Shown: piece by piece, positions 29,941-53,210 of the stretch
How the letters are laid out: the number at the start of each line of letters is the position of its first letter
Position numbering within the stretch: position 1 is the first letter of the stretch
Notes under the pieces: generated by a model
Seen by the model: only the letters and a program-made list of their open reading frames with translations
Database searches by the model: none
What the model was told of the DNA's origin: nothing
Translations under genes and position numbers: made by a program
Source of the DNA: a virus
Length of the DNA: 64,000 bases
IMG/VR virus record: IMGVR_UViG_3300047444_000577
Span: 34,441-98,440 of that record
Strand: one strand, 5' to 3'

Positions 29941-30216
29941 TCAGTAGAGGCCAATCCAGTGGCACACCGTCGATATGGCCAGCAGAACTGCGACGACCTT
30001 CACCACGCGCCAGAACTCACCCGGCGCATGCGGTCCCCCAATGCCCTGCTGCATACGCTGCTCGTACATCTGGTGCTGCTCGAAGTAGAACTGCTGCTGT
30101 TGCAGCTCCATTAGTTGCTCGGTCGCCTCGTGGTCGCCGGAGGACGTGCTGTACTGCGCCTGGGCTCTCTGGCTCGCACTGTTGAAGTCGCTCATCGTTC
30201 CCTCTCCCTGCTTCAC
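29941..30216 (-). CDS. Small membrane protein
   Basis: Gln-rich N-terminus and a hydrophobic C-terminal helix. Confidence 0.5.
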   Translation of the reverse strand: MKQGEGTMSDFNSASQRAQAQYSTSSGDHEATEQLMELQQQQFYFEQHQMYEQRMQQGIGGPHAPGEFWRVVKVVAVLLAISTVCHWIGLY

Positions 30217-31292
30217 TGCGTCCGGCGCAGCGGTACGACATTCTCCTGGCTGACCATGGCGGTAAGGAAGGGCTTCCCCCGGAGCATCTGGTCCCGGCGT
30301 GCTCGCTCGCTGGACAGGCCAAGGTACCGCTCAGTGGTGGACATGGATGCATGGTGCAGCAGAGCACTGACAGTGCGCAGTGCTGCGTCGTAGCCGATCT
30401 CGTTGGTCATGCTATCGAAATAGGCGCGGGCGACTGCCCGGCGCAGGGTGTGGGTGCCCTCGTAGCGGGTGGGCAGACCTACAGCGGCCAGGGCGTGCTT
30501 GACGATCTTCTCGGTGCGGGTGACCGGGCGCTCGGGGTGGTAGGTGTACGGGGTGCGCTCCAGGATCCTCGTGCCGGTGTTGGGGTCGAGGTAGTTGCGG
30601 GCGATGACGTTGCCGGACCGTGCGGGGAAGAGGTAGTCGTCGGCGCGCAGGGGGCGACCAAGGGTGGCGGCGTACTCGACGAGCCAGACCCGCAGTTCTC
30701 GTTCGAGGTCGGCGGTCAGGGGCATCTCGTCCTCCTCCTGGGTTTTGACCACGGTCACGAAGACCTCCCCGGCCGCGAAGTCGATGTCACCGACGCGGAT
30801 GCCCGTGATCTCGCTGGCACGGCAGGCGGTGTTGATGGCCACGGCCAGGTAGGCACGGTGCATGGCGCACTCGGCCTGGTCCAGGAGCTGGAGCAGCAGG
30901 TTGGGGCTGGGCTGCTGGCGGCGTCGGCGGGGCAGCTTGAGTGGCTCGACGCCGTCAAGGAGGGTGCCGGACTCGGTGTAGCCGTTGGCCTTGGCCCAGG
31001 TGAAGAAGACCCGCAGCCTGGCGCGGTAGTTGTTGTGGGTGCCGGGGCCGACGGCCTCGCGGATGGTTTGGCCCTTGATGCGGGTGGAGTGGGTGTCCAT
31101 GACGCCCCCCTCGCCGTAGAAGAAGTCGCGGACGACGTCCATGGTGAGCTGGCTGAAGTCGGGGTCACCCACGTGTCCGGCGAATCGTGGCAGCAGGGTG
31201 CGGTCGACTCGCATGGTGTTGTGCGCCTTCCCGGCCCGCTTGCGCAGGGACAGGTACTCGGTGACTGCGGTGCTGACTGTGCCGCTGCTCAT
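30213..31292 (-). CDS. Tyrosine recombinase/integrase
   Basis: TACRASE (R), HTLRR (HxxR), LLHH and TERYL (Y) catalytic residues; RBS AGGAGG. Confidence 0.92.
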   Translation of the reverse strand: MSSGTVSTAVTEYLSLRKRAGKAHNTMRVDRTLLPRFAGHVGDPDFSQLTMDVVRDFFYGEGGVMDTHSTRIKGQTIREAVGPGTHNNYRARLRVFFTWAKANGYTESGTLLDGVEPLKLPRRRRQQPSPNLLLQLLDQAECAMHRAYLAVAINTACRASEITGIRVGDIDFAAGEVFVTVVKTQEEDEMPLTADLERELRVWLVEYAATLGRPLRADDYLFPARSGNVIARNYLDPNTGTRILERTPYTYHPERPVTRTEKIVKHALAAVGLPTRYEGTHTLRRAVARAYFDSMTNEIGYDAALRTVSALLHHASMSTTERYLGLSSERARRDQMLRGKPFLTAMVSQENVVPLRRTQ

Positions 31293-49650: not shown

Positions 49651-50022
49651 TCAGCCGCCGTGGGCTTCCTGGTACTCCACGAGCAGGGCCTGCGGCAGCC
49701 GACCAGCCTCCGGAACCTCGCGACCCTGCGCCTGCAGCCAGAGCCGAACGTCCTTGGTGGTGAACGGCCTGCCGTCCGCACCCTGGATCGCCTTTCGGAC
49801 CGCCGTACCGTTCCGCTGCTGGGTGTCGCTGGCGATGCTCGTGTACGGCTGCAGGGCAGCGATCAGTGACTCCTGGTGCTCCGCGCACAGGTCCATGAGG
49901 TAGCGGGTGGTGCCCACAGTGACAGGAGTCGGCTCATTGTTCGGCACCGGAAGACCGCAAGCTTCTGTCTTCTTCCGCCTTAGGACCTTGAAATCGCAAG
50001 CCTTGCTGATGATGTCTGCCAT
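49651..50022 (-). CDS. lsr2: Lsr2-like nucleoid-associated protein
   Basis: RYLMDLC..H...L.AALQPY dimerisation motif; DVRLWLQAQGREVPEAGRLP...EY DNA-binding domain. Confidence 0.8.
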   Translation of the reverse strand: MADIISKACDFKVLRRKKTEACGLPVPNNEPTPVTVGTTRYLMDLCAEHQESLIAALQPYTSIASDTQQRNGTAVRKAIQGADGRPFTTKDVRLWLQAQGREVPEAGRLPQALLVEYQEAHGG

Positions 50023-50127
50023 CGGGCAACTCCTTAGGAACGGCACGAACGCGCGCCGGAGCGGCTACGCAGCCACCACCGCAATATTGCTCTCCCCTTA
50101 TCGGTTCTGTCAAGCGTTTCCAAACCG

Positions 50128-50988
50128 CTACGACACGGCCACAACGTTGAAAGCACTCAAAGTACGCCCGGCCCCGTCGAACAGCCTGTACCTCTCTGTC
50201 TTCTCCGACGGGGGTACCACGCCCGCCCACGCCCCAAACTTGTGGTGCAGCAGGTCCTTCGGGGAGATAGGGTCACACGCCTCGTCGACACGGTGCGTAG
50301 CTGGCCTCTTTCGGTGACGTCCGGTGGGTTTGGGCTCCGGTGTTGTGGTCGCTGGTACCGACGGGCTCGGGGTGACCTCAACGGGGGGCGTAGGTGCTGT
50401 GGTCGGTGCCGCCGAGGGAGCAGCAGCCACCGAAACCGTTGGCGCTGCAGCGGGAGTCAGGCTCGGCGACGCGGTAGGCGCGGGGGGCGGAGAAGCCTTG
50501 GCAGGCGCGGGGGTGGGGGTACTGGAGGGCAGCACCGGTCCGCGTCCAGAAGCTGGCACAGCGCTGGAGGGTCTGACGAACGCGGTGCGCTGCAGGGCTA
50601 CCTGCGACTGCTTTGCGGCGGGGACGGTGGGCTGCTGGTTCCCATCGTGATCCCCTTGTGAGATCGGAGTTCTGTGGCCCTCCGAGACCTCGGAAGCAGC
50701 CATGGCCACAACGAGCGGTGTGACCAGCGCCGCTAGGACCACGACTGCGGAATTGCGGAACCGCGACCGTCGAGGCCGGGGCGCTGCGTGTGCTGGTTCC
50801 GGGGCGTGTGGGGGTGCTTCCTCGTCGGGGCTCCAGAAGACTGGGCCACCGGAGGCCTCATCCCAGCCCCATTCCAGCTCTCCGCGCTCCACCATGTCCA
50901 TCAGGACGGATTCGATGACGGCGTCGGAGTCCTCGGGGGCGTCCTCGTCCTCGTGGGGGTCGACGTTGTCCCCTGTTGCCTCTATCAC
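50128..50988 (-). CDS. Membrane-anchored Pro/Ala/Thr-rich protein
   Basis: Acidic N-terminus, one TM helix, low-complexity linker. Confidence 0.55.
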   Translation of the reverse strand: MIEATGDNVDPHEDEDAPEDSDAVIESVLMDMVERGELEWGWDEASGGPVFWSPDEEAPPHAPEPAHAAPRPRRSRFRNSAVVVLAALVTPLVVAMAASEVSEGHRTPISQGDHDGNQQPTVPAAKQSQVALQRTAFVRPSSAVPASGRGPVLPSSTPTPAPAKASPPPAPTASPSLTPAAAPTVSVAAAPSAAPTTAPTPPVEVTPSPSVPATTTPEPKPTGRHRKRPATHRVDEACDPISPKDLLHHKFGAWAGVVPPSEKTERYRLFDGAGRTLSAFNVVAVS

Positions 50989-51048: not shown

Positions 51049-51264
51049 CTAGAACCATGTACTGTCCATGGCTTGGACGCTCTCCGGGGCGGTCGACGCT
51101 GTAGCGGTGTCCGGGGTGACCGCATCGGCCGGAGCGAACCAGGTGCTGTCCGCTACTACGTGGTGGCCCGTTACATCCACAGCAGTGGGGGTAGACGCAC
51201 CCACGATCCCTGCTGCCGCGAGGGCGAGGGAGGCGACCAGGAGACAGGAGCGCTTGCTGCGCAT
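51049..51264 (-). CDS. Secreted pro-peptide with two DSTWF repeats (candidate signalling peptide)
   Basis: RBS TAAGGA; Sec-type signal MRSKRSCLLVASLALAAAGIVGA; ADSTWF internally and MDSTWF at the C-terminus. Confidence 0.75.
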   Translation of the reverse strand: MRSKRSCLLVASLALAAAGIVGASTPTAVDVTGHHVVADSTWFAPADAVTPDTATASTAPESVQAMDSTWF

Positions 51265-51392
51265 TCGAACACATCCTTAAGAGTCTCGGAGCCGTCGGCG
51301 TACCCCCAACGCCGGGGGCCGCTGTCCGAGGTGGTCAGTAGACTACGTACCGCAACATCCCAGCAAGCGTTTTCGAACTACCGATCCCGGCA

Positions 51393-52409
51393 ATGCAGAT
51401 TGACGCACACATGAATGCTCCCCTGCCCGATCATGTGGACCTCCGGAAGCACTCCGACCACATGATTCATGTGTTTAACCGTGTCGCACAAGGAGAGGAC
51501 GTACACCCCACAACTCCTGGAGTCAGCGAGCTGGTCAGTTTGGGAGTATTGGTTCGGGAAGAAGACGGAACCATCGGTACGGCAGCGCGCACCCTTGCCC
51601 ACATGGCGGCGCGCGACGTCATCCTGGACGCTCTTCACGAGCAGGTCGCCTACGCCCGCACCGTTGGCCGCATTTTCGACCGTTTGGCGGAAGTGGACAT
51701 AAGGGGCGCATCCTCCGTACGGGTAATCGAACACCTGCACGGCGGCAGCTCCATCGAACGGCGCATCGACGAGCTGTTCGCGCGGGCCAAGCACGAGATT
51801 TTGCTCATGCAGCCGACCACCCGACGCTCTCAGAACGTCCTGGCCCAGTCCGCACGCCGGGACATGGCTGCCCTGGATCGAGGGGTCCACATACGGACCC
51901 TGTACCGCCCCGGTGTCCTCACCCAACCCCTCATAGAAGAGCGCGCTCGACAAGGCGCGATGTTGGGGGAGGAGGTGCGCACCCTCGACGTTGATTTCAG
52001 CAGGATGTTCATCATCGACGGCAAGTGGGCGGTCCTCCAGGACCATGTGCCGCGCGAGGGCGAGCCGGACCGCAACTACGCGCACCTGGTGTCCAACAGC
52101 GAGGTGTGTGCCTTCCTCTGCGCGCTCTTCGAACGCCACTGGGTCCTCGCCAAGCACTGGCACGGCGGTCGGCCCGGCAGTTCAGTCACCCCCCGGCAGC
52201 GTGCCCTGCTGGACCTGGTGGGGCCCGGAGGGCTCACGATCAAACAAGCGGCCAGCAAGATGGGCCTGAGCGAGCGCAGCTTGGCCACCGAGCTGGTGCG
52301 GATTCGCGAGGCGCATCCTCAGGTGAGGATGCCGACGCTGGCCAGCATGGCGTTCTGGTGGGCCACCCACCCCGGCCGGGAGCGGGAAGTTCCAAGTGCT
52401 GATGACTAG
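51393..52409 (+). CDS. Transcription regulator: PLD/TrmB-like sensor domain plus C-terminal LuxR-type HTH
   Basis: AKHEILLMQP, LDRGVHIRTLY, EVRTL...SRMFIID...A, LFERHW..A; VTPRQRALLDL...TIKQAASKMGLSERS. Confidence 0.85.
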   Translation: MQIDAHMNAPLPDHVDLRKHSDHMIHVFNRVAQGEDVHPTTPGVSELVSLGVLVREEDGTIGTAARTLAHMAARDVILDALHEQVAYARTVGRIFDRLAEVDIRGASSVRVIEHLHGGSSIERRIDELFARAKHEILLMQPTTRRSQNVLAQSARRDMAALDRGVHIRTLYRPGVLTQPLIEERARQGAMLGEEVRTLDVDFSRMFIIDGKWAVLQDHVPREGEPDRNYAHLVSNSEVCAFLCALFERHWVLAKHWHGGRPGSSVTPRQRALLDLVGPGGLTIKQAASKMGLSERSLATELVRIREAHPQVRMPTLASMAFWWATHPGREREVPSADD

Positions 52410-52416
52410 GCATGCA

Positions 52417-52448
52417 GAAGCCCCCGTAACCTGGGTGACGGGGGCTTC
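52417..52448. terminator. Bidirectional terminator
   Basis: GAAGCCCCCGT/ACGGGGGCTTC stem between convergent genes. Confidence 0.65.
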
Positions 52449-52457
52449 CATGCTGGG

Positions 52458-53210
52458 CTAGAAGTCGCCGGGGGCGACCTGCAGGCAGGTCAGTCCGAGG
52501 GTGTTTCGCCACATCTCGACCACCTGGTCACGGTCGTCGAGAACGAGCCGGACGTTGTACTTGCCCTGGATGTCCCGGCGGTAGATCTCCTCCTTGACGA
52601 TGAAGTCCTTTCGGCCGTCCTTCCGTGGCCGCATCAGGAGTTGCAGGTCAAGGACCCATTCCCCCAGGTGCTCGCGAAGCCACTCCTGCGTGTCGTCGAA
52701 GCAGACGACGTCTCGGCCGGACATGAAGATGATCTCGGCGTGGGATCCCCAGTACAGGGTCTTGACCAGTTCGACGACGTCCGTGATGGGCTCGTCCCCT
52801 CCGACCTTCCGCCAGTCGAACGGCCCCCGGTCCACCCGCCGGGCCAGCGTGCCGTCGATGTCCACCAGGATCGCTTCAGGGAGTTCCTCGACTGCGGTGG
52901 GTTCGGTCACGTTCTTCTCCTCGGTCGGGGTGTGGCAGCAGGTGTCGCAGATGTGCACGGCGAGAACGCTCACGTCCGGATCCCAGCCGTGGATCTGCTC
53001 CTTGAAGGCGAGGTCGTCCGGGTCGGGGTGGGCGTAGCCGTGCGGGCAGACGCGCTCCATCAGCATCAGCGCCGAGTTGAAGTGCTGCGGGAAGTCACGC
53101 ATCCCGTGGTTGGAGGGGTTGTGCACCGCGCAGTACGGACCGATACACACGCCAGCGGGGTGGGAGTAGATCTGCTGTCCGCCCTCCAGAACCGTGTACT
53201 CCAGCGTCAT
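52458..53210 (-). CDS. HAD-family polynucleotide 3'-phosphatase (PNKP-like) with a Cys/His-rich N-terminus
   Basis: ILVDIDGTLA, FMSGR, LLMRP..D.RKD..VK, LDDRDQVVEMWR..GL.CLQVA.GDF. Confidence 0.85.
   Translation of the reverse strand: MTLEYTVLEGGQQIYSHPAGVCIGPYCAVHNPSNHGMRDFPQHFNSALMLMERVCPHGYAHPDPDDLAFKEQIHGWDPDVSVLAVHICDTCCHTPTEEKNVTEPTAVEELPEAILVDIDGTLARRVDRGPFDWRKVGGDEPITDVVELVKTLYWGSHAEIIFMSGRDVVCFDDTQEWLREHLGEWVLDLQLLMRPRKDGRKDFIVKEEIYRRDIQGKYNVRLVLDDRDQVVEMWRNTLGLTCLQVAPGDF

Follow-up and report, generated by a model that had tools for sequence, protein, structure and literature searches.

Could a small secreted peptide, encoded next to a cytoplasmic regulator, provide a temperate phage of actinobacteria with a means of communication? 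The locus that raises this question lies in a stretch of 64,000 nucleotides (the window), which covers bases 34441-98440 of a 98,440-bp virus record of IMG/VR (IMGVR_UViG_3300047444_000577; CheckV completeness of 99%). An open reading frame (ORF) of 71 amino acids (aa) with two copies of the pentapeptide DSTWF is placed there head-to-head with the gene of a regulator. The initial annotation of the window proposed that the two form a phage communication system analogous to arbitrium, in which the peptide would be exported, matured, re-imported, and sensed by the regulator. Here, we found that the peptide gene and the regulator are tightly linked, in a specific orientation, across 42 distinct loci. 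We favor, with moderate confidence and on comparative grounds, the view that they may be a peptide signal and its cytoplasmic receptor, of a non-RRNPP type, in a temperate actinophage.

The small ORF of the window is preceded by a ribosome-binding site (RBS; AAGGA, 51274-51278) located 9 nt ahead of its ATG. The N terminus of the product has three K/R residues, a hydrophobic stretch, and the sequence V-G-A|S, and resembles a signal peptide according to a hydropathy heuristic. The two copies of DSTWF differ by two synonymous changes and by nothing else. All these features were present as initially described, as was the head-to-head arrangement, whose length had been given as about 130 bp and was measured at 128 bp. 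The G+C content at third codon positions (GC3) of the ORF is 0.75, the highest of three overlapping frames (0.62 and 0.69 for the two others). A sequence search with the peptide retrieved only the peptide itself, neither gene had a meaningful match in PHROGs or NCBIfam, and comparisons of the window with isolated phages (megablast for the locus and tblastn for the regulator) returned no matches.

It had also been suggested that ORFs with signal peptides and co-varying repeats could be sought next to homologs of the regulator, and this comparison was clearly positive. In the 42 loci, a divergent ORF upstream of the regulator homolog has the same design, i.e., a signal peptide and one to four copies of D-x-x-W-(G), the last of which is almost always C-terminal. 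The carriers are IMG/VR viral contigs, soil metagenome contigs, the Streptomyces phage Chymera, the phage-plasmid pSAM1, and other plasmids of Streptomycetaceae. A scan of IMG/VR with the back-translated regulator added ten viral records. A divergent ORF of 60 to 90 codons with a signal-peptide-like start and a terminal D-x-x-W-(G) is present in each of the 11 viral loci, window included, that encode the regulator or a homolog of it. The ten relatives have two or three copies of the motif (DSTW, DTTWG, DSTWG, DTHWG, DSVW, or DTAWG), except for one (L019) with a single DTWWG. A scan of metagenomes gave 58 contigs, of which at least 20 with enough flanking sequence carry the divergent peptide ORF, and a relaxed inspection of these contigs added further variants of the motif. 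Most of the metagenome contigs that lack a peptide end too near the regulator or encode one from a clade without peptides.

Is this association specific to the regulator? Among 3384 stop-terminated ORF segments from 60 related loci, a repeated C-terminal xxxW motif was found in 19, and all of these are on the divergent strand, directly upstream of a regulator homolog. In the reverse test, we scanned IMG/VR for DNA encoding D-T-x-W-G followed by a stop codon and obtained 54 matches. All the matches that are the end of a signal-peptide ORF, and whose flanking sequence was long enough for a judgment, have a regulator homolog at 351 bp or less, which added seven viral records. An all-against-all comparison of the flanking ORFs identified the regulator as the sole gene common across loci, with no conserved tailoring enzyme in the neighborhood. 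A single scan of genome contigs gave only an unrelated helix-turn-helix (HTH) match.

The module was initially described as a phage system. Phage carriers were indeed found, but the module is not phage-specific, since it is also present in large linear plasmids of Streptomycetaceae and, once, inside a nonribosomal peptide synthetase (NRPS) cluster. Searches by tblastn with a regulator of the pSAM1-type clade (clade B) identified 84 plasmids in PLSDB, 81 of them from Streptomyces and many with 88-93 kb, and, among isolated phages, Chymera only. Chymera is an integrated prophage of S. venezuelae ATCC 10712 (PMC10117723), and pSAM1 of S. ambofaciens gives its name to a group of putative phage-plasmids in the literature (PMC7969092). 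Chymera encodes the regulator as gp29 and, divergently, the peptide precursor as gp30, which has 59 aa, a signal peptide, and two copies of DPGWG, the first directly after an A-Q-A cleavage-type site and the second at the C terminus. The integrase and the immunity repressor lie next but one to this pair. The peptide of pSAM1 has three copies of DTAWG, and in both elements the two genes are annotated as hypothetical. Larger linear plasmids encode peptides with two copies of DSAWG, four of DIQW, three of DTGWG, two of DSDWG (beside an Lsr2 gene), or single copies of DTSWG or DLGWG.

Three plasmid loci have an unusual organization. The linear plasmid of Streptomyces sp. 2P-4 (L087, NZ_CP095012.1) encodes three copies of DTGWG that are not at the extreme C terminus, and its module adjoins MbtH and NRPS adenylation genes; it may be a cluster-situated regulator pair. 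The ORF of L088 (1082-1534, minus strand) has no signal peptide, ends in D-S-A-W-G-C, and overlaps the start of the regulator, and in L084 an ISAs1 transposase takes the place of the peptide gene. These last two look like decayed modules.

The variation between copies indicates which part of the precursor matters. We tallied the features of the motif in 42 distinct peptides, of which 40 have multiple copies. All copies have the same D-x-x-W variant in 34 of these 40, and the variants differ by locus (DTAW, DTTW, DTGW, DSTW, DPGW, DIQW, and others, 16 overall). The last copy is at most two residues from the C terminus in 39 of the 42 peptides, a position that would be consistent with the release of a mature peptide of 5-10 residues, as in RRNPP systems. 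The fifth position is Gly in 87 of 97 copies, and is Phe only in the peptide of the window. Internal copies mostly precede A-P or T-P (31 such copies across the family), and the residue before the terminal Asp is usually Leu. Within D-x-x-W, codon differences between copies of the same gene are 35 synonymous versus 7 nonsynonymous, whereas the residues just upstream of the copies differ in 183 of 220 comparisons, and the spacers diverge even when the regulators are near-identical. The substitution patterns indicate that the unit under selection is a short peptide beginning at Asp, i.e., D-x-x-W usually followed by Gly, instead of the (A/M)DSTWF of the initial annotation. In Chymera, the first copy directly follows A-Q-A, so that the mature peptide probably starts with Asp. 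The presence of the peptide and the variant of its motif track the tree of the regulators, with 6 changes compared to 13.5 in shuffles (none of 500 shuffles was as low). This tree has clades of DTTW type and of DTAW type, with occasional switches. In one locus (L007, 2194-2391, minus strand), the repeat region has a sub-threshold match to the NCBIfam model of AfsS (E value of 0.012; 16 bits for a cutoff of 60). Like the precursors, AfsS is a small protein of Streptomyces that contains short repeats, and the match is probably a compositional resemblance only.

What kind of receptor could the regulator be? It was thought to combine a PLD/TrmB-like domain with a LuxR-type HTH and to differ from the TPR receptors of RRNPP systems, a prediction borne out by Foldseek, family profiles, and the Pfam GerE domain of its relatives. 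In its AlphaFold model, built from 95 sequences (mean pLDDT of 85), a winged HTH is followed by a helix of about 40 residues, and an alpha/beta domain precedes a four-helix HTH at the C terminus. The top Foldseek matches are TrmBL2 (E value of 7e-12), TrmB (3qph), and proteins with the PLD fold. In the family profile, positions 28-248 match TrmBL2 (E value of 2e-10) and positions 252-318 match NarL/GerE (1e-10). Among 11 close relatives, nine have a Pfam GerE match, with a best E value of 3.9e-7, and the regulator of the window itself has only sub-threshold Pfam matches, namely TrmB (PF11495; 16.9 bits for a cutoff of 22.2) and, at its C terminus, Sigma70_r4_2. Pfam revealed no TPR domain in it, and the predicted fold fits TrmBL2, TrmB, and PLD proteins, not TPR ones. 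The catalytic H-x-K-x4-D of PLD enzymes is replaced by F-x-R-x4-D (F202, R204, and D209), which is nearly invariant in the family alignments. The C-terminal sugar-binding subdomain of TrmB is absent, and the residues after position 255 or so form the LuxR/GerE HTH. The protein has two HTH domains and no transmembrane segments. HMMER searches gave 918 representatives of the family, typically of 310-360 aa and aligned end to end.

These observations can be assembled into a putative mechanism, in which export, processing, uptake, binding, and regulatory output are all inferred. The 71-aa product would be exported through its N-terminal signal peptide and cut outside the cell into short D-x-x-W-(G/F) peptides, in the window two DSTWF per precursor. 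A single cut would be enough to release the C-terminal copy. The level of the peptide would rise as the cells that carry the element become denser, and it could be taken up again by the oligopeptide permease of the host. Once inside the cell, the peptide would bind the PLD-fold domain of the adjacent regulator, the equivalent of the effector domain of TrmB. The DNA binding of the regulator would thereby change in the divergent promoter region, and probably also at further genes of the element. In temperate phages and phage-plasmids, the output could be an arbitrium-like choice between lysis and lysogeny, induction, or maintenance. When the regulator was co-folded with residues 24-71 of the pro-peptide, the score was 0.01, a value obtained without controls that counts neither way on binding.

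Several observations weigh against a dedicated signal-receptor pair. First, the match between the variants of the peptide and the tree of the regulators does not by itself prove a co-evolved specificity, since linked genes are co-inherited. Second, the variant of the window has F in place of the final G, and the regulator of the window sits on a long branch of the tree. Third, the route of export (Sec or Tat) is ambiguous because half of the 42 precursors have R-R within their first 18 residues, followed by hydrophobic residues. Many members could thus use Tat rather than Sec, and the signal of the window peptide has no R-R. Fourth, a well-supported clade of nine regulators lacks such a peptide neighbor, and therefore the sensor domain can work with other inputs. 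Finally, about 25-30 of the 54 matches of the reverse scan are leaderless mini-genes of seven or eight codons, with the sequence [M/V]-S-(D)-D-T-x-W-G-stop, some of them with two tandem units. They were found in viral contigs L098, L099, L101, L103, L105, L107-L109, L111, L112, L116, L117, L125, L128, L130-L132, L134, L136, L141-L144, L146, and L148. They start after a GGAGG-type RBS or at a GTGA overlap with the stop codon of the upstream gene, and a GC-rich hairpin follows them. Among eight mini-genes tested, the convergent neighbor is a tyrosine integrase in five, a resolvase-type serine recombinase in one, and an endonuclease VII in two. Five genomes of phages with mini-genes were examined and have no full homolog of the regulator, and Rfam gave no match near the mini-genes. 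The product of the mini-gene could be a form of the secreted peptide that stays inside the cell, or it could mimic that peptide. Because temperate phages without a regulator homolog carry M-S-D-T-x-W-G mini-genes, the target of the peptide may lie beyond the adjacent regulator, either instead of it or in addition to it.

These mini-genes support the most serious of the alternatives, which we nonetheless regard as unlikely: the regulator merely controls the peptide gene and senses something else, while the D-x-x-W-G peptide acts on a target in the host or in a competing element. Such a peptide could manipulate the development or the defenses of the host, or other elements. The mini-gene peptides of phages without the regulator need another target, the family of regulators includes the clade without peptides, and it is a large family, whose 918 representatives are probably mostly host-encoded. 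However, the strict one-to-one divergent pairing, with variants specific to each locus, is the pattern observed for a cognate signal and receptor, and a universal host target would not favor 16 variants.

An extracellular effector without any role in signaling is an improbable explanation. The small protein could then be a factor of superinfection exclusion that binds the surface or masks a receptor, or be antimicrobial or adhesive, and its repeats would raise dose or valency. Prophages often encode secreted or surface exclusion factors, and the signal peptide, the disordered spacers rich in Thr, Pro, and Ala, and the multivalent short motifs would suit this function. Yet, the peptide gene is always paired with a one-component regulator of the ligand-binding type, the module is also found on plasmids and in a biosynthetic cluster, and the C-terminal position of the last copy suggests the release of a small peptide, not a folded effector. 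It is less probable still that the ORF encodes the precursor of a ribosomally synthesized and post-translationally modified peptide (RiPP), e.g., with a Trp-modified core repeated two or three times. Its C-terminal repeated units with Trp do resemble cores, and the N terminus of one homolog matches the precursor model TIGR04081 (E value of 0.0017, below the cutoff), but no modifying enzyme is conserved beside the pair, the regulator alone being common to the loci, and the N terminus resembles an export signal, not a RiPP leader. Finally, GC-rich DNA yields many spurious ORFs, two others overlap this one, and the window peptide matches only itself, but an open frame and a motif repeated by chance can be practically dismissed given the same design at the same position in 42 loci, the synonymous changes within the motif, a GC3 above that of the overlapping frames, and the proper RBS.

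We thus retain a peptide signal with a cognate receptor as the preferred reading. More tentatively, and with somewhat less than even confidence, we suggest that mobile elements of Streptomycetaceae (temperate phages, phage-plasmids of pSAM1 type, and linear plasmids) may use an unrecognized family of peptide quorum sensing. Exported precursors would release tetra- or pentapeptides of the form D-x-x-W-G, and a receptor made of TrmB-like, PLD-fold, and LuxR-HTH domains would read these inside the cell and set lysis-lysogeny or maintenance. The mini-genes that rival temperate phages have next to recombinase genes would yield the same peptide intracellularly, and could then spoof or bypass the signal.

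If the regulator acts on its own locus, where would it bind? Both promoters and any operator presumably sit in the intergenic region between the two genes, and a scan for consensus promoters found none in it (Table 1). In clade B, conservation is higher in the intergenic region than in the peptide gene (alignment of L003-L009, L013, L019, L023, L024, L027, L028, L037, L050, and L080). Its invariant blocks are nested inverted repeats: GGGGCGTC pairs with GACGCCCC, about 130 bp apart, and further inverted blocks are CTCGT/ACGAG and CTGC/GCAG. A hairpin recognized by eye has a conserved CTGGCAG loop and variable stems that apparently compensate each other. RNAalifold gave a structure of this region with a covariation term of approximately zero. 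The conserved blocks may be operator sites or a structured RNA element.

Table 1. Coordinates of the module and of other features in the window (positions of the window unless residues are given)
Feature	Position	Strand	Basis or remark
Pre-pro-peptide gene, 71 aa; signal-peptide-like N terminus and two DSTWF units	51049-51264	-	ORF list, GC3, comparative loci
Predicted signal peptide, residues 1-23	51196-51264	-	Heuristic of hydropathy and charge; cleavage site inferred
DSTWF copy 1, residues 39-43	51136-51150	-	GAC AGC ACC TGG TTC; followed by A-P
DSTWF copy 2, residues 67-71	51052-51066	-	GAC AGT ACA TGG TTC; immediately before the stop codon
Divergent intergenic region, 128 bp	51265-51392		Peptide gene and regulator head-to-head; holds the RBS of the peptide gene
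Imperfect 11-nt inverted repeat	51291-51301 / 51309-51319		Within the 128-bp region
One-component regulator, 338 aa	51393-52409	+	AlphaFold model, Foldseek, profiles
TrmB-like winged HTH	About residues 17-66 of the regulator		
Long helix (coiled coil)	Residues 67-105 of the regulator		
PLD-fold sensor-like domain without HKD motif	About residues 110-255 of the regulator		
LuxR/GerE HTH	About residues 264-330 of the regulator		
GC-rich hairpin, likely bidirectional terminator	52417-52448		Read by eye; between the convergent regulator and PNKP genes
Polynucleotide kinase/phosphatase (PNKP)	52458-53210	-	
Membrane protein, 286 aa, single-pass	50128-50988	-	Directly downstream of the peptide gene
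Lsr2-like nucleoid-protein gene	49651-50046	-	
Serine integrase, 677 aa	31686-33719	+	Window gene
Tyrosine integrase	30213-31292	-	Window gene

The remainder of the window is that of a temperate tailed phage of Streptomyces type. It encodes a portal, a large terminase, and a tape-measure protein, which, together with the serine and the tyrosine integrases, identify the phage as temperate, and it has three tRNA genes and a G+C content of 64.5%. The hairpin downstream of the regulator lacks a T-run and was not reported by the terminator scan. The membrane protein next to the peptide gene has an acidic N terminus, one transmembrane segment, and a C-terminal part rich in Pro, Thr, and Ala. It recurs solely in the closest relative of the window locus (L002), and judging by this distribution, it is outside the conserved module. 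An Lsr2-like gene is also found near the module in L002 (1460-1858, minus strand) and in a Streptomyces linear plasmid (L091, 2252-2494, minus strand).

How does the module compare with known systems? Full-text searches by motif and by topic, within the searchable literature, found no description of it. Its closest structural and profile matches are the archaeal TrmB and TrmBL2, with which the regulator shares the N-terminal winged HTH, the long dimerization helix, and the PLD-like fold of the effector domain. However, the regulator lacks the additional C-terminal subdomain with which TrmB binds sugars, and has a fused LuxR/GerE HTH instead. It is encoded by bacterial mobile elements in a pair with a peptide gene, in contrast to the archaeal proteins. 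The presence of adjacent genes for signal and receptor is shared with the gamma-butyrolactone synthases and ArpA-type receptors of Streptomyces. Such pairs of genes are often found on linear plasmids or inside biosynthetic clusters, and one of the modules described here lies beside NRPS and MbtH genes. The signal of those systems is a butyrolactone and the receptor belongs to the TetR family, whereas here the proposed signal is a ribosomal peptide and the receptor is not of the TetR family. The signals attributed to Streptomyces are, to our knowledge, butyrolactones and related small molecules rather than unmodified peptides.

The functional parallel is with arbitrium (AimP/AimR) and the other RRNPP systems (Rap-Phr, PlcR-PapR, NprR-NprX, PrgX, and Rgg-SHP). 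As in these systems, a short gene for a pro-peptide with an export signal adjoins the gene of a cytoplasmic regulator, the presumed active unit is C-terminal, and the variants differ by element. Some Phr precursors also hold several mature units. The carriers are also temperate phages and plasmids, and the pair of Chymera is near an integrase and a repressor. The differences are as clear. RRNPP receptors are TPR proteins from Firmicutes whose genes are co-directional with those of the peptides, whereas here a TrmB-like winged HTH, a PLD-fold domain, and a LuxR-type HTH form the receptor, the hosts are Streptomycetaceae, the genes are divergent, the motif is D-x-x-W-G, and the role in signaling is predicted. 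The peptide communication of phages that we know of is restricted to Bacillus-type hosts and to TPR receptors of the RRNPP family. If our interpretation is correct, the module would be the first of the arbitrium type to be found beyond Firmicutes and beyond the RRNPP fold, and its receptor would represent a new fold for sensing peptide pheromones. The module would extend the social decision-making of phages and plasmids to Actinomycetota, and could provide a handle on the behavior of prophages and plasmids, and perhaps on the regulation of clusters, in antibiotic producers. The kind of system, a phage peptide pheromone with an intracellular receptor, is known; the class of the receptor, the motif, and the phylum of the hosts are new.

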